Shown here: in pieces, positions 4,711-26,847 of the stretch
Numbering within the stretch: position 1 is the first letter of the stretch
How the letters are laid out: each line of letters opens with the position of its first letter
Source: Candidatus Thorarchaeota archaeon
GTDB taxonomy: Archaea; Asgardarchaeota; Thorarchaeia; Thorarchaeales; Thorarchaeaceae
Assembly: GCA_030612005.1 (NCBI GenBank)
Contig: JAUWOU010000004.1
Location: forward strand, 4,238-68,237
Length of the DNA: 64,000 bases
Reading direction: 5' to 3'
The notes under the pieces: model-generated
Databases searched by the model: none
The model's input: the letters and a program-made list of their open reading frames with translations, nothing else
What the model was told of the DNA's origin: nothing
Program-made: the position numbers and the translations under genes

Positions 4711-4737
4711 ACACGAAGAAAGCTTCATAAAAACCCA

Positions 4738-5148
4738 TACCTTACAATTGTGAGTGAACTGTAAGAGACTCCTGTGTTCCACCTTTCTCACGACTGCTGT
4801 CGCCAGCATCTGAAAGACCTGAGTCATCCAAAGAGTCGCAAGCTTTGCCCCTCTTCACTGGAACATCGTTCCTCCGATGGGACTTGGCTTCTGTCCGCTG
4901 CATTGACTCACACGCACCAGTAGGTGTGATAGCAGTCGGTGTTTCCACAGCATTTACCATGGCAGGGTCTTCACTCCTCGCAAACGACTCAAGAGTCGCC
5001 TGGTCATAGGGGTCGGCCACGGACTCCCCTTTCAAGGCTGGTGTCCTCTGGGGGAGTGCGGACTTCCCATGAGAAGAACGAGTCTTCCTCCGGGCTTTCA
5101 GTATGGCTCTATCTCTAGGAGTGAGCCACATCCCTAGTCCGTTCTCAT
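4738..5148 (-). ncRNA. Putative long omegaRNA/reRNA overlapping the tnpB 3' end
   Basis: Collinear homology and compensatory pairing with the stand-alone copy at 25597-26050; position typical of TnpB reRNA; ends approximate. Confidence 0.7.
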
Positions 5149-6478
5149 TTCTCAGTGAAGGAATGAGCATAATAAGGCGCTTTCCAATGTTGATGGCGCC
5201 ATTCAGGTCGGCGTTCAGTTTTTGTCCACAGGTGGTACAGATGAAGAGGTTCTGTCTGGGTCTCTGTCCCTTGTGTCCACACTTGTGACACATGATTGAC
5301 GTCCATTGCTCAGGGACTGCCTTGAACTTTTTGGGGTTGAATCCAAGGGATGTAAGCTTGTGTTCTAATTTATCACGGACTCTCGCAAAGGCCCAGCGAT
5401 GGATCATCCCTCTGTACCTTCGTCCTCTATAGTTACCTTTTCGAGCAGTATTCCTGATTCCCTTCAGTTTCCCAATTGACACATAGAGGTCATATTGCCT
5501 AGTCATCTCTCTGATGTAAGCAGAGATATCTTTCACAAGCTTCTTGTCATGTTCTTTACTGACACGTTCGCGCTTTCCACTTAATTCCCTAAGCTGGGCA
5601 GTTGCTCTATCAGGATTTCCACCCTTGGTAATGAGTTGTTCCTTCTCTCGTTGAAGGGAAGAAACTCTCTCATCCAAGTTTTTCATACGCTGGAGCTTGT
5701 CTGGCTGTTTCCAGTATCGAATCTGCCTGTAGCCCTTCCTTGTGAGAAGGACTGAACATGCAGCCTTGTTAATCCCAAGGTCGATGGACAATACAGCAGG
5801 GGGTTTTCCAGTAGAATCGATTTTCTCAACAGCGAGAGTCACCGTGAAGATAGCCCACCACTTCCGACGAGAATCCTTGAATATTCGGACTGTCTTGACC
5901 TCCCCCTCTTTCATCCGATTGAGATGGAAGGAGGAGATGGAGAGGGGAATCATGAGTTTGTCGTGACGCTTTCTCTCTTCAGAAACTGAATCCAAAGAAT
6001 CTCTAAGCTTCAACCAGTGACGAATCTCAAGATTTGGATTATAAACCAACTTGAAACGTTTGTTAAAAGCAAAGCGTGGGATCTTCCGTGTGGAATATCC
6101 CCTAGTACGTAATGGCTTTGCACCACCCCGTTCAAGATAGCTCTGCCACATGGCAATAGCTGTATCTCGACACTCCTGAAACTCATTTACAGAGATGTTT
6201 GGAAACCTAACTTTGAAGTCATGAGGTACATAACTTCGGTCCGCCTTTCCTTTAGAAGCAGTCAGGGTGAGTTCTTCCAATTTTGAGGTGTCAATTCTCG
6301 TTCGTTTCTTACCTGTCAGTAACTCTTCTTCACACCTTTCAATCACTCCTAGATACGCCTTGATGACTCTACTATCTCTACCAGTTATCCGGTTGAGGCG
6401 AGTCTTCTGATTATCAGTCATCGAGTCCCATCTGATTGGAACCTTCACACTGATTATTGTACCCTTGGAGCGACCCAT
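4742..6478 (-). CDS. tnpB: Divergent TnpB-family RNA-guided endonuclease with rearranged RuvC and ~135-aa tail overlapping its RNA
   Basis: RuvC-I SIDLG, Zn ribbon CHKC...CTTC, RuvC-III NADLNGAINI; RuvC-II reads VSIGKL, with PEQWTS downstream. Confidence 0.85.
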   Translation of the reverse strand: MGRSKGTIISVKVPIRWDSMTDNQKTRLNRITGRDSRVIKAYLGVIERCEEELLTGKKRTRIDTSKLEELTLTASKGKADRSYVPHDFKVRFPNISVNEFQECRDTAIAMWQSYLERGGAKPLRTRGYSTRKIPRFAFNKRFKLVYNPNLEIRHWLKLRDSLDSVSEERKRHDKLMIPLSISSFHLNRMKEGEVKTVRIFKDSRRKWWAIFTVTLAVEKIDSTGKPPAVLSIDLGINKAACSVLLTRKGYRQIRYWKQPDKLQRMKNLDERVSSLQREKEQLITKGGNPDRATAQLRELSGKRERVSKEHDKKLVKDISAYIREMTRQYDLYVSIGKLKGIRNTARKGNYRGRRYRGMIHRWAFARVRDKLEHKLTSLGFNPKKFKAVPEQWTSIMCHKCGHKGQRPRQNLFICTTCGQKLNADLNGAINIGKRLIMLIPSLRNENGLGMWLTPRDRAILKARRKTRSSHGKSALPQRTPALKGESVADPYDQATLESFARSEDPAMVNAVETPTAITPTGACESMQRTEAKSHRRNDVPVKRGKACDSLDDSGLSDAGDSSREKGGTQESLTVHSQL

Positions 6479-6865
6479 TCATTTCACCTGAGCTGATTTA
6501 AACTTCTGACCTTTCTCTTTCGAGTTCACTCCCATCTTTGTTCCCAAGAGTGGTTATGTACTCGTACTATTTTCTATTACATTAACTGATTTAAACTTAT
6601 GAAGCAAAAATACAAATTGACCTGATTCTCTTAACTAATAGAAAATAATACACTAAACGTATTGCAAACAAATTATAATTACTTATAAATAAGCGTACAT
6701 ACTACTAACTGCCTTGGTGGAACCCAAAATGAAGGAAATATGGTGTTTTCTGGATCATACAGGATGGTTCAGAAGTGTATTAGAAGCCAATAGATTCACC
6801 TTATGGAACGAGGTAATTCTTGAACTACAGGAATATGGGGTCCACCCCAGTAAAGATGCTAAAAT

Positions 6866-6947
6866 ATTATGTACGTCCGTACATAATAAACAAATTTCTA
6901 TGTACGTGTGTACAGAGTGTACCGATTTTTCTGTACAACCGTACAGA
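6866..6947. promoter_or_regulatory. Three TGTAC-N4-GTACA palindromes at 31-bp period
   Basis: 6870-6883 TGTACGTCCGTACA, 6901-6914 TGTACGTGTGTACA, 6932-6945 TGTACAACCGTACA, just before GAGGAGGT RBS-like sequence. Confidence 0.7.
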
Positions 6948-6961
6948 GGAGGTATGAATCA

Positions 6962-7618
6962 ATGACTACAACACAATTAGAGACCCATCCCCCTCTAGAT
7001 GATATTCAAGAGTTCAGAAGATCCGAGTCAAACACAATCTACATCAAGAGCCCAATCGTGCAAGGAGTAGCTGGACTATTGATTGGTTCTGTCTGGCGTG
7101 TGGACTATTCTGATAGATCAATACGTCTACTTAATTCTAATCTCATATCACATCATGAGAAGGTTCCTCTTACTCCGTTTTCCATCCCTGATAGACATCT
7201 CCGTGCTGTTCGAAAGATTGGGGCGGCATTGTTCAATGTGCGACGATTTGATAGACTATTCCTTATTGACAAGACTGTTTCATCAATAGGGTATGTCGTC
7301 AATCGAGATGACGAAACTCGTCTGTTTGTAGACCGCACAGATGCTGAGTTGTATGTTTCCCAGATAGGTGAAGGCGCAGAGATAGTGACCCAACCACTAA
7401 CGAAGAAGACAACCCGTAATGCTCAGAGGAATAGTGCAGAGATTCGGACTGAGATGCTTCGACTGATGACTCAGTTCATGACCGGGACGGGTGCATTGAG
7501 GCAACTCAAGACCCTGAAAGAAAGAGGGGTAGACCCCAAAGAACTAGAGAAGATCTGGTGTGATGCACATGAACAAGACAATATCCCAGCTATCCTTGGG
7601 ACGTTCCTCTACGAGTAA
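6962..7618 (+). CDS. Hypothetical protein (~218 aa), first gene of a two-gene unit
   Basis: Open frame, RBS-like GAGGAGGT at ~6946, ATG at 6962; no recognisable motif. Confidence 0.7.
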   Translation: MTTTQLETHPPLDDIQEFRRSESNTIYIKSPIVQGVAGLLIGSVWRVDYSDRSIRLLNSNLISHHEKVPLTPFSIPDRHLRAVRKIGAALFNVRRFDRLFLIDKTVSSIGYVVNRDDETRLFVDRTDAELYVSQIGEGAEIVTQPLTKKTTRNAQRNSAEIRTEMLRLMTQFMTGTGALRQLKTLKERGVDPKELEKIWCDAHEQDNIPAILGTFLYE

Positions 7619-10600
7619 GGAACAGAAAATCCTAGGTATGAGGATGGTTCCGGCGCAGCCTGCAAAGGTCCTAGCTAATTCCATCTACGCAGGTTTAGCA
7701 GCTCTTGTCAGGCTTGCAGAACGACGCGTGACAAAGGACCCTGAGGTCATCCGTCTGTTCAATGAGATCAAGCAGATGTGGAAAGAAGCATGTGCCGAGT
7801 ATAAGCGATTGAAGAAGATGGGAATCCCTGACTTTTCACTGATTTTGAACATTGAGCATAATATGAGAAAGAACTACCTTGGGATGCTATGGTACAGTAC
7901 ACGACCCTTTGGAAACACAGAATACAAGCGAGTCTATCGATGGAGAGAAGGGACCATCGGACCACTCAATGAACTCCTCAACTATGCAGGGGCAGAACTG
8001 AGGAGTGTCGCAGCCAAATACTACAGCTTCCCTTTGGTGCAATATTATCAGGTCAGAGAACTTTCAGACAAAAGGGTGGATTTTGTCCACAAGAGCGTTG
8101 CACCGAAGTATCCTCCAGAGAAGGGAGTGAAGGTCTCGTGGACAGCAGCTTATCCAGGGAACTCAAAGCATCCTCTTGTCCGTGTTAGACACTCCACCCT
8201 TCCGGAGATGGACTTTATTGACATGATACGAGCTCATGTGATCGAGCTGGTCCGTCAGTGTTTCATACATAATGTTCCAAAGATGGCCTCCAGGAGGTAT
8301 ATTCGACTCCTCATCTATAGACTGCAACCCTTCCTGGACTGGGTGTATACTGATAGAGCTCAGGGGCGAGGAAAGTTCTGGCCAGATGCAGACAAGGTCC
8401 TTCGTGAGATGGTCCTTGAGGTGCGAGCAAGATACAGCAGGCGCTTAGGAAGGACTCCACGACTCACCCATCAGATTGAGTCTGGTTCAAGGAAACCCTC
8501 GATGGCGGACATAGTGACTCAGATCAACAAAGCCTACAGACAGGACACTTCCAAAAAGATGAAGCAGACTACCAGTGAACTTCTGAAGTTGATGGGTTAT
8601 TCTGTAGATAAGAAGAGAAAGACACTCACACTGAGAGCAGACACCTCACCTGCCATGAAAAAAGCACTTACAAAAATTGCTAAAGATATGAAGTACAAAA
8701 CCAGAGAGGTCAAGGAGTTCAAAGAACCTATCAAATCTGCCCTTACTGATGATGATGCACAGGACCTCTATGATAATATCCTCAGTCTGAGCCAGCGAGA
8801 GGGGAATGACTGGCATAGAGTACTCTTTGGAGATATGTTCCACCCCTCATCCCTGCGACAGCTTGTCTATGCTGGGGACAAATTTCTGGATGATACATCG
8901 GAATACTTGATCGCAGCTGAGGTCCCTGTGAAGAGTATCTCTGGGAGTGGACAGGCAGATATTGTGGTGTCAGTACGACGGTCCGTTGTTGGAGAAATTC
9001 TATACACCCCGATCGTGACGTTTGATGTCAAGACAAAGACTGGAATAAACTGGACTATGCGCGGAAAGCAACCGCGAACGAAGAAGGAAGACTCGCGGAT
9101 TCCAGGGCTTGTTGTTCGAAAGCGAGCATTGACTTCCACTGAGTGGTCTCGAATAGTCAATAGTACACCTAGCCCCACAGAACTCTCACAACTCCAGAGC
9201 TATGAGTCTGGTCTGCTAGAAGAGTATAGGGAATTGGTGAAGCAAGATCCAGACCACCCTAAGACCCTCTGGAAGGGAATCGTGCTATTGGACAGTGATG
9301 AGGACCGTGAAACTCTATTCACCCTCCTACCGGAACTTGTGAAATCAGTCATCAGCGACCTGAAGACTGGTCCATCCCCAGACGGACGGACCCTGTACAC
9401 ACTGAATTCACAAGGAGTTAAAAAAAGAGGGCAGTATAAGTTTGGCATAGTCTTGCTTCCAGCACTGGGACCGCACCATCTGCTTAAGCAGGCAATACCC
9501 ATTGAATCTATCATTGAAGATGATCCCTTCAGAAACAGGGTCAAGGATGATGTCCACTTCACCCTGTATCTGACAGTTCCCTCTGGAGGGTCTTCTGGTG
9601 AGTCTGCAGCATGGATATCGCGCAACTGGCATCTTTTACACTATCTGTCTGACCTTAGAGAAACCTCTGAAAGACAGAATATCAAGTGGTTAGATCTGAC
9701 TGGGGTACTCGCAGAGAGCGGTGTACGTCTTCAACGACTCCGTCTCGTTGGAGACCAGAAGCCCAGGAAGTTATCAAGAAGAAGGTTGGAATCCCTCCAA
9801 CAGCTAACAGAAGAGATTGAATTCCATGACCTCAGTAGCAATCTCAAGGAGTACTTCTTCTCGGATGCTACCACTGCCATTGAGGAGCTTGAAGCACAGA
9901 TAAGAGAGTGTATACAGCAGGCATCAGATGAGAGGTCTATTATCGTCGTAGATGGATGGCCCCAGCTTCGTAATATCATCCCCTCTCACATGGACTCATT
10001 ATTGAAGACCTTAGAACATAGGATCATCGAGTGGCTGCCAAAGGAAGATGCAGAGGTCATCTGGCTTGATAGACCAGTTCCTGTCCCGATACTGTCTGCT
10101 ACCTATCAGTTGCACAGGATGACTCCCCTACCTCACGACTCACCCAGATGGTTTCTCCTTGATGAGGTCATATGGAACCTCCCGACCTCTCCCCGAAATT
10201 TTGGATGGAGAACCCCTCGAAGGGAGGACATCAGGGTCATTGCACAGGACACTCCTACCTCGAATAAGCCAAGGGTGCTATCCTTCGGAGTTCCACACTT
10301 GAAGGGGTGGGCACGACGGTTTCGAGCAGACTCTAAGAGAGAGCGGACGGTTTCAGTGGATGAGGTGTTTGGTGATAATGAAACCTATGGGCGTGCGTTC
10401 TACTCTGCATCGTATGTAAAGGTCGGTCTTGGCTCTAGAAAGATCATACTTGATGATATCTACAAGTTAGTACCCAGTCTGAGTAGAGTCCGTGATACAC
10501 AGAAGGGGTCTTCAGATGAATCATCGAAGAATAATTCTCAATCAAAGTATAGAGTGAAGAGACAGATTCTTGGAAAGACCTCATCCTCTAGGGGAATCTG

Positions 10601-12503
10601 GGATCGAGTGTCCTTCATTCAGCAAAATATGGAGCCTCACCGAGGTCGACTTGGCACATATTCATCCATTGAGGATATCACCAGGGGCAAGGTCAGGAAA
10701 CCCTCCCGTGAAACCCAACTAGTATCAAGAACATCACGACGACCTCCGGTTGTGCGACCAACTCCTGTAGAGTTAATAGACACAGACCAGACCCGACATG
10801 ATGAGATCCTTCGTATAAAAAGAACTGTAGAGTTCTTGCTGCCCAAGTGTGATATTTTTGATGAATACTGGGAGGGTGTTCTGAAGAGTACGCTCAAGCT
10901 CTGTAAGAAGTATCAGAGGGGAGAGAATACATCTCTTGATACCTTTGACCAGCTACAGAAACTCTATGCGAAGCTTGAGGGCTCCCGAGACCTCTGGAAG
11001 GACCTCTCATATGAACGAAGATTTGGTAGCGGTCGTGAACAGATCCCTCGAAGTATACTCTCCGTAGTACGAGAAAAGCCAGAGCTCATCACTAGGTATG
11101 GGATTCCACTCTTCCTATTACTTCAAGGAGTAATGAGTGAGGACGACTCAGAGTCTTTGAAGGTCCATGTACCTACCCTTTGGAGCGCAGTGGCAGACTG
11201 GCAATGGGTGCACATGGGTTTCAACCCCCAGAATGACCAGCAGGGACTTGCACAATATAGATTTGATATTCCTGCCCTATGGTCAAATCTTCTCTGGAGA
11301 GCACAACAACTCGCCTCAGGACCTGTCAAATCTAGGCTTTTTGAGAGTCACAAGATTGGGGAACTTATTCCAAGGGGTGATGACCAAGTGTGGCTGGTCT
11401 TTCAGGAAAAGCCAAGGAGTGAGAAGATGATTGCAGGACTCCTCACTGGAGTCAACATGACTGCTCCACTACGGGGTACTTATGAAACAGTAGTAGACCT
11501 CGGTAAACTAGCAGCTTCTGTTGATTACACCCTGGATGAGTCTTCTGATGAACGACAGACCATCATCATCACTCGATTTGATGGGATGGACCTCCTTTGG
11601 GCAAAGCACCTGGAAGAGATTGATGATTCGGATTGGGCGCTCCTTGGAAAGATCAGATACAGAGCACCGAAGGAGGGGATAAGTGCTCCAATCAGAGGAG
11701 TCACTATCTCAGGGGTACCGAAAAAGGTCATTGAAAGAATACCATTTCCTGATGATACTGCCATTCCCTCAGACCTCAGAGTACGAGTGGATGAGAGTCT
11801 GAAACAGATCGTGAGTGATGCAGACCCAGTTCAATCAGTGCGTATCAATGTCACTATCAATGAAGAGTCGGGTTCGTATCTCATCAATCTAGTGGGACAA
11901 AATGAGGAACTCCTAGAGGAACTAGAATATGAAACTACTGATGAGGTGATCGGTTTCTTACGAAGTCCGATGACCAGGGGCGATTATTATCAGGCAGAGG
12001 ATGGTCGGCTGTATTCTTGGAATCCCCTGAAGGACGTTTCGTATGATGATGAGGTTGAAACAACAAATGGACTGTTGAGTCTGACCTTCCTTCGGCCACG
12101 AGTGGAGAATGAGCTATTTCTCAATGGAACATATGTCCTTCCGAGGACTGCACAGGAAGTCATTGAAAGTGAGTTGGGTGAGGAAGTCGTCATGGTGGCA
12201 ACACCGGACCTGGCCCGGTATAGGAAGGGTTGGAAACGGTGCTGGAATGTCTGGTTCATGAAATCTGATCTTGGCGAGGGAATGCGGTCAATGGAACAGG
12301 TATCCTGTACAATCTATGATATTGCATTACTCTTTGAGTGTGAGCAGATATTCGATGTTGATATGAAGAAACACTATCCAACATGGACATCAGTCAACCA
12401 TCTAGCTGAGGTCAAGATTCCAGATGAACTAATTCATCATAGTCGAATGGGACAGCATATGGATCTCAGAAACCTCGCTGAAAAGTATGGGTTATCTTAT
12501 TAG
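7560..12503 (+). CDS. Very large hypothetical protein with PD-(D/E)xK nuclease-like motif and degenerate P-loop-like region (start possibly 7638)
   Basis: 4.9-kb open frame; AEVPV...GQADIVV...FDVKTK...QLQSY; PSGGSSGES and SIIVVDG. Confidence 0.6.
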   Translation: MMHMNKTISQLSLGRSSTSKEQKILGMRMVPAQPAKVLANSIYAGLAALVRLAERRVTKDPEVIRLFNEIKQMWKEACAEYKRLKKMGIPDFSLILNIEHNMRKNYLGMLWYSTRPFGNTEYKRVYRWREGTIGPLNELLNYAGAELRSVAAKYYSFPLVQYYQVRELSDKRVDFVHKSVAPKYPPEKGVKVSWTAAYPGNSKHPLVRVRHSTLPEMDFIDMIRAHVIELVRQCFIHNVPKMASRRYIRLLIYRLQPFLDWVYTDRAQGRGKFWPDADKVLREMVLEVRARYSRRLGRTPRLTHQIESGSRKPSMADIVTQINKAYRQDTSKKMKQTTSELLKLMGYSVDKKRKTLTLRADTSPAMKKALTKIAKDMKYKTREVKEFKEPIKSALTDDDAQDLYDNILSLSQREGNDWHRVLFGDMFHPSSLRQLVYAGDKFLDDTSEYLIAAEVPVKSISGSGQADIVVSVRRSVVGEILYTPIVTFDVKTKTGINWTMRGKQPRTKKEDSRIPGLVVRKRALTSTEWSRIVNSTPSPTELSQLQSYESGLLEEYRELVKQDPDHPKTLWKGIVLLDSDEDRETLFTLLPELVKSVISDLKTGPSPDGRTLYTLNSQGVKKRGQYKFGIVLLPALGPHHLLKQAIPIESIIEDDPFRNRVKDDVHFTLYLTVPSGGSSGESAAWISRNWHLLHYLSDLRETSERQNIKWLDLTGVLAESGVRLQRLRLVGDQKPRKLSRRRLESLQQLTEEIEFHDLSSNLKEYFFSDATTAIEELEAQIRECIQQASDERSIIVVDGWPQLRNIIPSHMDSLLKTLEHRIIEWLPKEDAEVIWLDRPVPVPILSATYQLHRMTPLPHDSPRWFLLDEVIWNLPTSPRNFGWRTPRREDIRVIAQDTPTSNKPRVLSFGVPHLKGWARRFRADSKRERTVSVDEVFGDNETYGRAFYSASYVKVGLGSRKIILDDIYKLVPSLSRVRDTQKGSSDESSKNNSQSKYRVKRQILGKTSSSRGIWDRVSFIQQNMEPHRGRLGTYSSIEDITRGKVRKPSRETQLVSRTSRRPPVVRPTPVELIDTDQTRHDEILRIKRTVEFLLPKCDIFDEYWEGVLKSTLKLCKKYQRGENTSLDTFDQLQKLYAKLEGSRDLWKDLSYERRFGSGREQIPRSILSVVREKPELITRYGIPLFLLLQGVMSEDDSESLKVHVPTLWSAVADWQWVHMGFNPQNDQQGLAQYRFDIPALWSNLLWRAQQLASGPVKSRLFESHKIGELIPRGDDQVWLVFQEKPRSEKMIAGLLTGVNMTAPLRGTYETVVDLGKLAASVDYTLDESSDERQTIIITRFDGMDLLWAKHLEEIDDSDWALLGKIRYRAPKEGISAPIRGVTISGVPKKVIERIPFPDDTAIPSDLRVRVDESLKQIVSDADPVQSVRINVTINEESGSYLINLVGQNEELLEELEYETTDEVIGFLRSPMTRGDYYQAEDGRLYSWNPLKDVSYDDEVETTNGLLSLTFLRPRVENELFLNGTYVLPRTAQEVIESELGEEVVMVATPDLARYRKGWKRCWNVWFMKSDLGEGMRSMEQVSCTIYDIALLFECEQIFDVDMKKHYPTWTSVNHLAEVKIPDELIHHSRMGQHMDLRNLAEKYGLSY

Positions 12504-12558
12504 TGGTAAATCTTACATATTTTCTTACATTTTGCGTTAGTTGCTATTTAGGAATCTA

Positions 12559-12683
12559 TTATCTACGAAGAAACAGAAGACTTCATAATGTCATATTTTC
12601 CAGAATATACTTGACTCCTATTGCCTACTAATGTTACTCCAGAATTTGACAAGCAACGGCTTATCTACGAAGAAACAGAAGAC
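12559..12683 (+). repeat. Exact 23-bp direct repeat TTATCTACGAAGAAACAGAAGAC (12559-12581 and 12661-12683)
   Basis: Read directly; one copy intergenic, one inside the 5' end of the GTPase gene. Confidence 0.9.
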
Positions 12684-23804: not shown

Positions 23805-23938
23805 GACTCTGCCTCATGATTGGAAGTCTATCAATTGTGCTATTAGGATTGTTATCTATGACCAAATGGCAAAGAACAAGTACCACTTAGGTTACAACAC
23901 CATCCAGCTGAGTGTGAAAAAACGTGAATTGTGGGAAT

Positions 23939-25360
23939 ATGGAGTCAATTGACATATTTTTCAATGCAAAGAGTGTCGCTATTTATGGAGCATCTACGAG
24001 CCAGAATAGTGTGGGACAATCAATCATTCAGAATTTTATCAAACCTCAATATGCTGGAAAGGTCTATGCAGTCAATCCAAAATATTCACAGGTACTTGGT
24101 GTTCCCTGTTTTTCAACTCTCCAAGAAATTAAAGATCCTATTGATTTAGTGATAGTTGCAGTACCCGCGAGAATAATACCTAGGGTGTTTGATGACATAG
24201 CAGCTAAAGGTGTCAAAGCATCAATAATCATCTCTGGTGGTTTTTCAGAAACGGGTGTTATTGGTACAGAACTTGAGAATGAAGTTGTAGCGATAGCAAA
24301 GAAACATGGAATCCGTATTATTGGACCAAATTGTATTGGTGTGGTAGATACACTCAGTCATATTGATACATTCTTCCTGCCTGAGTATAGATGTGGTAGA
24401 CCAAAGCCCAGCAATGTTGCAAATATTTCACTAGTATCTCAGTCGGGAGCTTTTGCTGCAGCAATCGCAGATTGGACTTCTGAGCTAGGTATCGGTGTTA
24501 GTAAGCTAATTAGCCTTGGTAACAAATGCGATGTAGATGATGATGATTTGCTCTGTTATCTTGCAGAAGATAATTCTACCCAGGTCATTTGCTATTACAC
24601 AGAAGGGTATGATCAGAATAAAGGTCGTACTTTCTTTGATACAGCTAGCAGAGTGACTCCTAACAAGCCTGTAATTGTTGTAAAGTCAGGAAGGGGTCAG
24701 AGAGCGAAGGCCGCTGCAAGTTCTCACACAGGTTCTCTTGCAGGTTCAGATAGTGTTGCTGATGCAGCTTACAAGCAGTCGGGTGTAATTAGAGTAGATA
24801 ACTTTGAACATATGTTTGACACCGCCAAAGCACTGGCGATGCAACCTCCAGCAAAGGGAGATAGAGTCCTTATGATTACAAATGGAGGTGGTTTGGGTGT
24901 GATGACCACCGATGCTCTTGAAGCTCTTGAGTTAGCAATACCAACCCCATCAAAGGAACTAACAGACATTTACAAAAAACGTCTTCCATCATATTGTGCA
25001 ATAGGAAATCCCATTGATGTTGTTGGAGATGCAAATGCGTCCAGATATGATATCGTCTTCGAAGAAGCAATCAAGAGTGGAGAGTATGATATGTTTGTTG
25101 TAGGTATGCTACTCCAGACACCTAGTCTAAGCATGGAAATAACCAATGTCATTGCAAACCATCAGCGTCAATCTAGTCTTCCCTTTGTCGTGGTTTCTAT
25201 GGGCGGTGGTTTCACAACTAAGGCTGGAGAGATTATGGAGTTAATGGGTGTACCAACATATGCAACTGGTGAGAAAGCAGCACTTGCAGCAAAGGGATTG
25301 GCACAATATGGTGAAATCAAATACAGAGATATATTCAACAAAACTCTTGCAAGTTCATAA
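23939..25360 (+). CDS. acdA: ADP-forming acyl/acetate-CoA ligase alpha subunit
   Basis: CoA-binding SVAIYGAS, IIGPNCIG, SQSGA, SHTGSLAG, NPIDVVGDA. Confidence 0.92.
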   Translation: MESIDIFFNAKSVAIYGASTSQNSVGQSIIQNFIKPQYAGKVYAVNPKYSQVLGVPCFSTLQEIKDPIDLVIVAVPARIIPRVFDDIAAKGVKASIIISGGFSETGVIGTELENEVVAIAKKHGIRIIGPNCIGVVDTLSHIDTFFLPEYRCGRPKPSNVANISLVSQSGAFAAAIADWTSELGIGVSKLISLGNKCDVDDDDLLCYLAEDNSTQVICYYTEGYDQNKGRTFFDTASRVTPNKPVIVVKSGRGQRAKAAASSHTGSLAGSDSVADAAYKQSGVIRVDNFEHMFDTAKALAMQPPAKGDRVLMITNGGGLGVMTTDALEALELAIPTPSKELTDIYKKRLPSYCAIGNPIDVVGDANASRYDIVFEEAIKSGEYDMFVVGMLLQTPSLSMEITNVIANHQRQSSLPFVVVSMGGGFTTKAGEIMELMGVPTYATGEKAALAAKGLAQYGEIKYRDIFNKTLASS

Positions 25361-25596
25361 ATAATTTCCGTTGAAGATTGTAAGAAAATGTGTTAAATAT
25401 TCATTAAGATAATAGTTTATGAATATTTGACACTTATTAATCAAATTAGAAATCAAACAACACCCAATCAATATCTCAATTCCCCCTTCATTTCAGTGGT
25501 ATCTAAGTATGAAAAAGCTCAGAAATCTACTAAGATATTTTCTTCGTATTTAGAGAAATTGAATGAGCTCATATACTCGCACTAGTATGTAATAGT

Positions 25597-26050
25597 ATGA
25601 GAGGACTAGGTATGTGGACTAGAGCAGTTGTTCGAGGAACAACTAATCGACGTGCGCGACTGAAAGCCCGAAAGAAGAAACCTTCTTCCAAAGGGAAGTC
25701 CTTACTCTCTATAAATGAACCAACATCAGGTTCCGGAGAGTCCGCGGCTGTTCACTTTGTCCAGTTGGACCTTGTCAGTTTCTGTGATGGAACGGGTGAG
25801 AGTGATAATGACCCCGCCGTGGTAAGAACTGTGGAAACGCTCACTGTCGTTGGAAGTGATGTATCAACATCAGTACAGGAGAAAGAAGCCAGGTCTTCAG
25901 GAGGGATACCATCCCGATGAACGTCGACAAAGCTCTTGCTAAGTTTAGCATTTTCTCGAAAATGCTGGATGGTGGTGACACTGGCAGGAGAAGGGCGGAA
26001 CATAGAAATATCTTACAGTTAAGAATTACTCACCATTAAATGTAGGATAT
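25597..26050 (+). ncRNA. Stand-alone copy of the TnpB-associated long structured RNA (no tnpB gene attached)
   Basis: Collinear blocks shared with reverse complement of 4738-5148: GGACTAGGxATGTGG, CTGAAAGCCCG, GGGAAGTCC, GACCCYGCCRTGGTAA, CTGTGGAAAC, AGAAGCCARGTC, GAGAARGGYGGAACA, TCTTACAGTT. Confidence 0.75.
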
Positions 26051-26112
26051 AAGTTATAACCATAAAAGGAACGGAAACTGTGGTAGCAAATAGAGCTGAG
26101 GTCTGAAAAGCG

Positions 26113-26847
26113 ATGAAAGAAGCCCAAAAAATCTTCAAGACTGCCCTCGAAGAGGGAAGAACGTTTGTACTGGAGCACGAAGCAAAGGACATAATGAAAG
26201 CATATGGGATTCCCATTCCAGCTTATGATACTGCGGTGACTGCAGATGAGGCTGTAGAAAAGTCCAAAGCTATCGGTTTTCCTGTAGTACTCAAAATCCT
26301 CTCAAAGGATGTTTTGCACAAATCCGACGCAGGAGGAGTGAAAATCAATCTTAAGAATGAAGAAGAGGTTCGCAAAGCGTTCACTGAGATTATGGATAAC
26401 GCAAAGAACTATGGAAAAGAGAAAGGCATTGATGTGGATCTGAGTCGAGGAGTATTCATTTCAGATTTCGCAGATATGGGTACAGAGATTATTGTCGGTG
26501 TCACAAAAGATCCTCAGTTTGGGCATGCACTGATGGCAGGTCTTGGTGGCATTTTTGTTGAAGTCTTGAAAGACGTATCTTTCAGATTGATTCCATTCAC
26601 CGAGAATGATGCCAGAGAGATGTTGAAGGAACTAAAAGCATACAAGATATTGGAAGGTATCCGTGGCGAACCTCCAAGAGATGTAGATTCTCTAGTCAAT
26701 GTCATGTTGGCTGTATCCAAGATGATTGAAGAGAATCCTGAAATCATAGAACTAGATTGCAATCCAACCTTTGTGTATGAAAAAGGGAAGGGGACTCTAG
26801 TTGTTGATGCACGGATTCTGATTGGTAGCTCGGAAGCTAGCCACTAA
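26113..26847 (+). CDS. acdB: ADP-forming acyl/acetate-CoA ligase beta subunit (ATP-grasp)
   Basis: GFPVVLKI, HKSDAGGV, DPQFG, GLGGIFVEVLKD, ELDCNP. Confidence 0.92.
   Translation: MKEAQKIFKTALEEGRTFVLEHEAKDIMKAYGIPIPAYDTAVTADEAVEKSKAIGFPVVLKILSKDVLHKSDAGGVKINLKNEEEVRKAFTEIMDNAKNYGKEKGIDVDLSRGVFISDFADMGTEIIVGVTKDPQFGHALMAGLGGIFVEVLKDVSFRLIPFTENDAREMLKELKAYKILEGIRGEPPRDVDSLVNVMLAVSKMIEENPEIIELDCNPTFVYEKGKGTLVVDARILIGSSEASH

Follow-up and report, generated by a model that had tools for sequence, protein, structure and literature searches.

A putative stand-alone omegaRNA element between acdA and acdB of a Thorarchaeota archaeon: an unusually large and abundant archaeal form of a known kind of element

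Stand-alone omegaRNAs have been found and shown to act in trans, according to a passage of PMC10691335 that cites Altae-Tran 2021, and PATE elements often encode omegaRNAs for use in trans, as stated in one part of the preprint 10.1101/2023.03.14.532601. The portions of PMC10691335 that treat Asgard archaea report a GTTCACTCA motif downstream of tnpB, and TnpB groups associated with aCas1 (Cas1H-Asgard-1/2). A further passage of that paper considers clades with Gly at RuvC-II and NADXN at RuvC-III to be rearranged and probably active. Because trans-acting stand-alone omegaRNAs and the Asgard GTTCACTCA motif are both in print in these passages, the locus described here is of a known kind and new only as a variant; the original prediction had put forward the concept of a protein-free guide RNA loaded in trans as undescribed. 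What we describe is an unusually large, abundant archaeal form of that kind of element.

The element lies in our window, the 64,000-nt stretch of Candidatus Thorarchaeota DNA analyzed here, in the gap between an acdA-like gene (23924-25360, with Succ_CoA_lig and CoA_binding domains) and an acdB-like gene (26113-26847, ATP-grasp_5). These two genes are ∼12 nt apart in the same-genus genomes G008 (flanks 93-94% identical), G010 and G003, and a match table gave adjacent acdA/acdB match pairs of the same kind in G007, G017 and G001. Metagenome contigs from three runs (X17, X18 and X20) join position 25347 to 26056 via nine other letters, and the sequence of the empty site is ..ACTCTAATCTCTGA/ATAACCATAAAAGGAACGG.. 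Since relatives and metagenome contigs have an empty site there, we map the insert to 25348-26056 on the forward strand, a mini-element of ∼708 nt. Its right junction coincides with the right end of the whole family of copies treated below, and at its left junction nine target bases have been replaced. An extent of 25597-26050 had been proposed for the feature. The locus was right, but the conserved RNA occupies 25603-26056 and the whole element 25348-26056.

The left 220 nt of the insert are not flank. They begin with a left-end motif 'X' (TGTAAGAAAATRTGTWARAT and its neighbors, 25348-25430, + strand), which recurs at the far, left end of the 7.8-kb tnpB element described below and also 40-240 nt upstream of other copies that lack the TnpB core (solos). 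A junction piece common to solos follows (25567-25602, +), with an in-frame ATG at 25597, and leads into the structured RNA region, a putative omegaRNA scaffold of ∼454 nt (25603-26056, +) that is homologous to a tnpB 3' end. Overlapping these is a 107-codon ORF (25597-25920, +), equivalent to a detached TnpB C-terminal tail. Rfam covariance models found no match at E ≤ 1 in window 25300-26200. Only one of 233 highly conserved columns deviates in the window solo, by which measure it is as good as the tnpB-attached copies.

Pairwise alignment bore out the original claim that the acdA-acdB gap is collinear with the 3' region of the window's tnpB gene, from GGACTAGG (window 25603; tnpB strand 5140) to the terminal hairpin; collinear homology extends ∼10 nt past that hairpin, and the flanks beyond are unrelated. 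No 5'-flank homology was found between the window solo and the window tnpB copy; the 5' piece common to solos emerges on comparing copies within one subfamily. The frame at 25597-25920 does read GLGMWTRAVV..LKARKKK..SSKGKS..GES..DPAVV..VET..EARS. RuvC-coding DNA, said to be missing, is indeed missing: the upstream sequence has no RuvC or zinc-finger coding, and there is no adjoining TnpB core match.

The window's own tnpB gene (4742-6478, − strand), assigned below to subfamily A, encodes 578 aa, matching NCBIfam NF040570 over aa 94-434 at 107.7 bits (cut-off 100) and Pfam Cas12f1-like_TNB (PF07282) over aa 364-431 at 52.7 bits (cut-off 26.3). As the NF040570 match ends at residue 434, the ∼145 residues of the tail are what overlaps the homologous region; the subfamily-A omegaRNA-like region itself (4732-5140, −) overlaps the last 134 codons of the gene. 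TnpB motifs in the protein are GIDLGI, NADLNGAINI and CHKCG..CTTCG, and its RuvC-II is SIGKLKG, with Gly at the usual Glu position. Together with a 236-aa ORF and a 1647-aa ORF, tnpB makes up a 7.8-kb mobile element (4732-12564, −) that is absent from G036, G008 and G010, where its flanks abut. An ∼18-nt target direct repeat surrounds it, with the right copy at 4714-4731 and the left copy (TTATGAAG..TTTCTTCGT, bearing a 6-nt insertion) at 12565-12588; the empty sites in G036 and G008 have the repeat once. The left-end motif of this element is the reverse complement of window 12500-12560.

The 1647-aa orphan protein is encoded divergently beside tnpB (7560-12503, +). It gave no match in Pfam, NCBIfam or PDB, the last searched by both sequence and profile, and all 62 of its database homologues, from 5.8 billion proteins searched, are unnamed or 'hypothetical'. 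A motif in it, ADIV..LEIKTK, presumably resembles that of PD-(D/E)XK nucleases. Within the genome, tblastn gave 20 further matches on other contigs, full-length or partial. Homologues of this ORF are mostly titled 'Candidatus Thorarchaeota', as are the TnpB relatives in public genomes. Y1 TnpA (PF01797), on which assignment to IS200/IS605 depends, had no match in the 90.9%-complete genome, and Cas1 (PF01867) had no Pfam match there at E ≤ 10. Two IS607-type serine recombinases are present, one of them adjoining a paralogue of the large ORF.

We searched the genome assembly (3.64 Mb, 271 contigs, with the completeness given above) with both DNA and protein queries. The copies found fall into two subfamilies; 13 are attached to tnpB, and at least 27 lack the TnpB core. 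Subfamily B, to which the window solo belongs, has 10 attached copies (counting C184, which has TnpB coding sequence upstream, and C255, both cut by contig ends) and 17 solos with one shared 5' junction, beside three uncertain fragments (C127, C176 and C114). Subfamily A, that of the window's tnpB, has three attached copies (C205, C189 and C131) and 10 solos with a shared junction, eight of them complete, beside three contig-edge fragments. The solo is therefore far from being the lone copy it had been taken for, and many more occur in related genomes. Nor is it a second copy of the RNA of the window's TnpB: its nearest relative is the tnpB 3' end on C184, 89% identical over 460 nt. The 578-aa TnpB had also been named as its partner; because the solo's subfamily has TnpBs of its own on other contigs, ∼50% identical to the 578-aa subfamily-A protein, the likely partner is to be sought among those instead.

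Solos have in common ∼36-45 nt that are absent from attached copies. In subfamily B the junction reads TTGTAYGAGTTCATATACTCACATCAACATGAAATTGTATGAAA, then GGACTAGG, and this piece was present in 17 of the 17 solos of the genome that reach that point and in none of the attached copies; in subfamily A it reads GTATGAGTTCATATACTCACATGACCATAGAACATTATGAAC, then GGACTAGG. The first ∼15 nt of the junction piece resemble TTGTACGAGTACATA, found ∼100 nt upstream of tnpB start codons. The right boundary is sharp, at ..TGTAAGATTTAGGTTA in subfamily B and ..TGTAAGATATGGGTT in subfamily A. Homology among copies stops at ..AGGTYA and beyond it the copies all differ, as do the 20-mers past the right end in 30 of 30 copies examined. 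Because variability starts only past ..AGGTYA, we place the predicted guide outside the element; for the window solo it would be the unique flank directly past the right end (26057-26076, +). This agrees with the earlier suggestion of a different guide for the solo, in that a unique 3' flank sits where the guide would be.

Right junctions were exact in all four empty-site comparisons, namely those of the window solo, C166 (compared with G036/G008), C25 (with G036) and the 7.8-kb element. Left junctions were irregular across copies. C166 is a clean insertion without duplication, a ∼650-nt host deletion adjoins the insertion at C25, and direct repeats of 18, 11 and 9 nt occur around three subfamily-A elements. 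Two orthologous subfamily-A solos have the right side in common and the left side not. The subfamily-A solos share 239 nt, at 84% identity, with the left end of the 7.8-kb element, a stretch in which the final ∼62 codons of the large ORF lie in antisense. Keeping both this left end and the right end, these solos thus derive from a double deletion. In the window solo the left-end motif is recognizable over 44-65 nt only, at 74-84% identity. As in PATEs and MITE-like elements, the protein genes of the parent are gone and both its ends are kept, and the copies are multiple, at unrelated loci, with presence/absence polymorphism. The sequences before the target at 4-5 empty sites (CTGAA/TCCAA, GGAAT, TCAAT and TTGCA) gave no usable TAM consensus. 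We also considered RNA-guided ectopic homing, in which new copies would carry the right flank of the donor; this was ruled out, since all right flanks differ.

Folding of an alignment of 36 complete copies (A3) with RNAalifold gave 76 pairs in 15 helices. Cells of the alignment were paired at 97.0%, versus 38.9-48.5% when partners were slid by 1-3 columns, and none of 500 shuffles reached any of the five measures used. Pairs with double changes numbered 34, versus 7-17 in the slid controls, with fewer independent events than the cell counts suggest, because many double changes reflect a single split between subfamilies A and B (11 of 36 rows); helices 4, 12, 13 and 15 have several pair types each. 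Invariant or frequent G-U pairs fit the tnpB-sense strand only, for example that of columns 148-224, seen in 36 of 36 rows. These comparisons demonstrate, at the level of aligned sequences, that compensatory changes have preserved an RNA structure on the tnpB-sense strand. When the window copy was folded by itself, the result was only modestly better than shuffles, with z = −1.74 for sense and −0.84 for antisense.

Most of the stems originally proposed from two copies were kept across the larger set. CCGYGGC/GCCRUGG pairs columns 146-152 with 220-226, its pair 149-223 being C-G in 25 and U-A in 11. ACUCYCY/GGRGAGU pairs columns 108-114 with 139-145, with both sides changed in five of seven pairs. 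The terminal hairpin pairs columns 427-432 with 457-462; it is 97% paired, and both sides have changed in four of six pairs. A further stem, UGAUGU/ACAUCA, stood only in part: it is present in the minimum-free-energy fold of the window copy, but most subfamily-B copies have GYUGGAA/UUCCARC there, so that a hairpin at the site is kept and its exact pairing differs. In the window the terminal hairpin (helix 15) is CTTACA..TGTAGG at 26012-26046 (+), with loop ATTACTCAC (family consensus GTTCACTCAC). The loop motif equals the GTTCACTCA motif, and is present in both subfamilies.

Attached subfamily-B tnpB genes were examined for the mark of an overlapping RNA. Their synonymous difference drops from 0.42-0.74 in the core to 0.16-0.33 from GLGMW on, and their pN/pS rises from 0.12-0.37 in the core to 0.53-0.79 in the tail. 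Judged on substitution patterns, this drop and rise together mark an RNA gene that overlaps a protein tail under weak constraint. In keeping with an omegaRNA, the region overlaps the tnpB 3' end and ends at the right end of the element, has a covarying structure, and is followed by a variable 3' flank. Orthologous solos in G008 and G036 were 89-93% conserved versus 93-96% for the right flank; being no better conserved than the flank, they give no sign of selection on the copy in place.

In the same genus, DNA matches at E ≤ 1e-30 were found in 16 of 25 other genomes. A covariance-model search for further copies, which had been suggested as a check on the original prediction, was productive. 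Built from the last 158 nt, the model scored the window RNA region at 168.9 bits and matched 12 of 17 other genomes of the family, in seven of nine genera including the window's own; it matched none of 103 genomes that represent 25 other families in the phylum, for which filtering was stricter and no more than 24 candidates were scored in any genome. In genomes of other genera in the family, RNA matches and full-length TnpB cores numbered, respectively, at least 24 and 5 (G053), 19 and 1 (G122), 16 and 4 (G072), 13 and 4 (G063), and 8 and 1 (G038). The solos of G053, which belongs to genus g16, have a different 5' junction, from which we conclude that the RNA-only architecture arose independently there.

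The window solo entered its site by insertion, with its right junction exact; many other copies exist, and intact TnpB genes of its own subfamily are present in the genome, for example on contigs C230, C64 and C266. We consider it probable that 25348-26056 derives by internal deletion from a tnpB transposon and is non-autonomous, and that its RNA is transcribed and is loaded in trans by a subfamily-B TnpB. Such a mini-element would have kept four parental pieces (the motif of the left end, a short stretch that lay upstream of tnpB, the ∼450-nt RNA gene and the right end) and would have lost the nuclease core and the other parent genes. Its RNA may be transcribed from a TATA-like TTCATATAC, a candidate promoter ∼25 nt upstream of 25597. 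A subfamily-B TnpB produced from another locus would then load the solo RNA in trans, with the ∼20 nt past 26056 (26057-26076) acting as its putative guide. By analogy with the established homing model for IS605 TnpB, set out in part of the preprint 10.1101/2023.03.14.532601, the nuclease might cut the empty allele of the site, after which the mini-element would be kept or copied back.

Two RNA-labeled metagenome libraries yielded contigs 90-95% alike to the window over 25657-25861, where DNA carry-over is possible; at that level of likeness the contigs stem from other copies. The suggested search of the 3' flank located the 20-mer 26057-26076 at its own genomic place with no second site in the genome, and gave no viral target: the first 18 nt of the predicted guide had no exact match in IMG/VR viral contigs, on a search with this one 18-mer for exact matches only. 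Lacking a second genomic site and an IMG/VR match, the predicted guide fits a homing role rather than one in defense or regulation.

The open frame of the solos could be read otherwise. The mini-element might be bifunctional or mainly protein-coding, making a ∼105-aa TnpB-tail peptide from the ATG at 25597, with selection keeping the frame instead of, or along with, the RNA; we think this unlikely, although several features of the solos speak for it. An in-frame ATG stands 6 nt before GGACTAGG in every genus g1 solo examined. The frame is open to a conserved stop in the complete solos of this genome (16 of 16 in subfamily B and 8 of 8 in subfamily A), in 3 of 3 complete subfamily-A solos of G008 and G036, and in 26 of 31 subfamily-B solos from other genomes of the genus; of the remaining five, four have a frameshift and one a nonsense mutation. 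From the private substitutions in the solos of this genome, ∼4.25 stops would be expected (3.50 in B and 0.75 in A), and none was observed. Of the indel patterns in the ORF part, 11 of 14 were multiples of three, compared with 5 of 19 for those of the untranslated tail (Fisher p = 0.005), but a single GAA/TTC-repeat hairpin, in which slippage by 3 nt is to be expected, accounts for 8 of those 11. Constraint on the amino acids is weak, with dN/dS at 0.62-0.79 in a solo set that also held the attached copy C184, and private changes were 28-31% synonymous versus 26-28% expected at random. The ORF at 25597-25920 has no Pfam family. The solos of genus g16 (G053) weigh further against a peptide: the ATG is present in 0 of 17 and the open frame in 0 of 17 anchored solos (of the 20 fetched, 3 lacked an anchor), and yet, despite the closed frame, they number ∼20 in one genome.

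A more specific proposal combines coding with the guide function. Within the genus, the ∼320 nt might have two uses, forming the 5' two-thirds of a giant omegaRNA and also being read as a leaderless mRNA that encodes the ∼105-135-aa tail, the tail peptide being needed to assemble, stabilize or restrain the trans-loaded RNP. We offer this dual-coding arrangement as a speculative and rather improbable one. If true, the 'protein-free' guide element would supply, along with a guide, a detachable part of its nuclease.

Conservation of the region could instead reflect a function of the DNA, namely a long right transposon end recognized by a transposase, with no functional solo RNA. The right end is the precise junction in four of four empty-site comparisons, and ATGTAAGATTTA, a motif of 12-14 nt, is found both at the right end and close to the left one, as might be expected of such a role. 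We nonetheless hold it to be very improbable. The compensatory changes span ∼450 nt and 15 helices, many of the G-U pairs would turn into A-C mismatches if formed by the opposite strand or by hairpins derived from duplex DNA, and synonymous change is depressed in the same region inside tnpB, as for an omegaRNA. Finally, the missing nuclease core of the window copy might suggest an inert relic, left by a tnpB paralog recently deleted in place between acdA and acdB, but this scarcely credible reading is refuted by related genomes (G008, G010 and G003) and contigs of three metagenome runs in which the orthologous site is empty rather than tnpB-bearing, and it fits poorly with one deletion junction common to 17 copies elsewhere in the genome and 31 in other genomes and with a window copy that is among the best conserved.

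The non-autonomous mini-element with a probably trans-loaded RNA, the reading we favor, draws its interest from size, abundance, mapped boundaries and an unexplained open frame. Few stand-alone omegaRNAs have been described in anatomical detail, and to these is added a mapped family of ∼450-nt TnpB-associated RNAs in Asgard archaea. The boundaries of scaffold and predicted guide are fixed by natural empty sites, and dozens of natural variants define the 15 helices. RNA-only derivatives arose at least twice and are several-fold commoner than nuclease genes. The family also permits a concrete reading of the Asgard GTTCACTCA region that the 2023 TnpB census left open, as a hairpin loop with the predicted guide lying past ..AGGTYA. 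It supplies ready-made constructs for testing trans-loading, as well as cross-compatibility between its two subfamilies, whose proteins are 50% identical, and it draws attention to a mobile element of 7.8 kb that encodes a large orphan protein.

Compared with stand-alone omegaRNAs and PATEs as these are presented in the source passages cited at the outset, our solos are alike in that the effector gene is lost, the ends and the guide-RNA gene are kept, and effector-bearing copies are present in the genome. They differ in their parent, here a 7.8-kb element with a 1647-aa orphan gene rather than a tnpA/tnpB insertion sequence, and in the direct repeats of 9-18 nt that some subfamily-A copies have. 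The solos of the genus, moreover, keep the ATG and an open TnpB-tail frame, and solos are here several-fold commoner than TnpB genes. Bacterial TnpB omegaRNAs measure roughly 130-250 nt; the Thorarchaeota scaffold, at ∼450 nt, is far longer.

Similar comparison can be made with TnpB/omegaRNA of the ISDra2 type. There too the RNA overlaps the tnpB 3' end, the scaffold ends at the right end, and the flank is the guide, as predicted here. In contrast, no Y1 TnpA was found in the present genome, the ORF tail that overlaps the RNA is much longer (134-145 codons), and RuvC-II is rearranged.

The aCas1-associated Asgard TnpBs, as characterized in the relevant portions of PMC10691335, are alike in their Asgard host, in belonging to a larger repeat-flanked element, in the GTTCACTCA downstream of the TnpB core, and in RuvC-III NADXN and the Gly for Glu at RuvC-II. 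Against that description, profile and sequence searches recognized no Cas1 in the 1647-aa neighbor or in the genome, although a very divergent Cas1 is conceivable for the neighbor. The segment upstream of GTTCACTCA, moreover, is not hypervariable among paralogues here, unlike in that account, and it pairs downstream, forming helix 15.

MITEs, lastly, are like these solos in their internal deletion with both ends kept, in high copy number and in insertion polymorphism. Our elements differ from MITEs in having no terminal inverted repeats, and in carrying, rather than ends only, a long RNA gene that looks functional.

Insertion of the window solo, a copy that has the putative omegaRNA region and lacks the TnpB core, replaced the final codons of the acdA-like gene (25340-25360), so that the product ends in ..KTLASS* rather than the ..KTLISNKP* of the same-genus genome G008, and shifted the acdB-like gene ~700 nt from it. 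In another same-genus genome, G012, a separate solo lies immediately upstream of that genome's acdB homologue (contig C270, locus L144, 1500-2010). Its flank differs from that of the window solo, so this gene has a solo nearby in both genomes through separate insertions.

A genome from another genus of the family, G053, holds ~20 solos (L204-L223) with a different 5' junction, ..ttattaggcccagtacgaaatttcgtttcagta preceding GGACTAGG; their frame is closed and lacks an ATG. In the window's own genome, the subfamily-A solos of contigs C121 and C92 sit between direct repeats, 11 nt (TAGGAGGCCAC) and 9 nt (TATAAGGAT) in length. Two subfamily-B solos whose empty sites are known lack such repeats.

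The tnpB gene itself lies in a 7.8-kb insertion (4732-12564) that is missing in three same-genus genomes and is bounded by a ~18-nt direct repeat of the target, at 12565-12588 (left, with a 6-nt insertion) and 4714-4731 (right). Upstream of tnpB (6479-6620, minus strand) are two copies, ~100 nt apart, of a TATA-like motif, AAGTTTAAATCAG, which co-vary across elements. Between them is GAGTGAAC; reverse-complemented, it reads GTTCACTC, the motif of the right-end loop.

The divergent neighbor of tnpB (7560-12503, plus strand) encodes a 1647-aa protein for which searches of Pfam, NCBIfam and PDB gave no match. A D..E.K-like motif, ADIV..LEIKTK, is conserved near aa 439-465. Other contigs of the same genome yielded 20 more tblastn matches, and the two gene types are divergent neighbors on at least nine contigs. 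The 62 homologues from databases all lack a name or are annotated as "hypothetical"; where named, they carry Thorarchaeota, Lokiarchaeota or Promethearchaeati labels.

Relatives of this large orphan protein occur on the two contigs of the window's genome that bear serine recombinases (L183 and L184): a 483-aa protein matching its C-terminal part on C20, and a 1426-aa paralogue following the recombinase on C189. Both recombinases are IS607-type, ~205 aa long, with MerR HTH and Resolvase.
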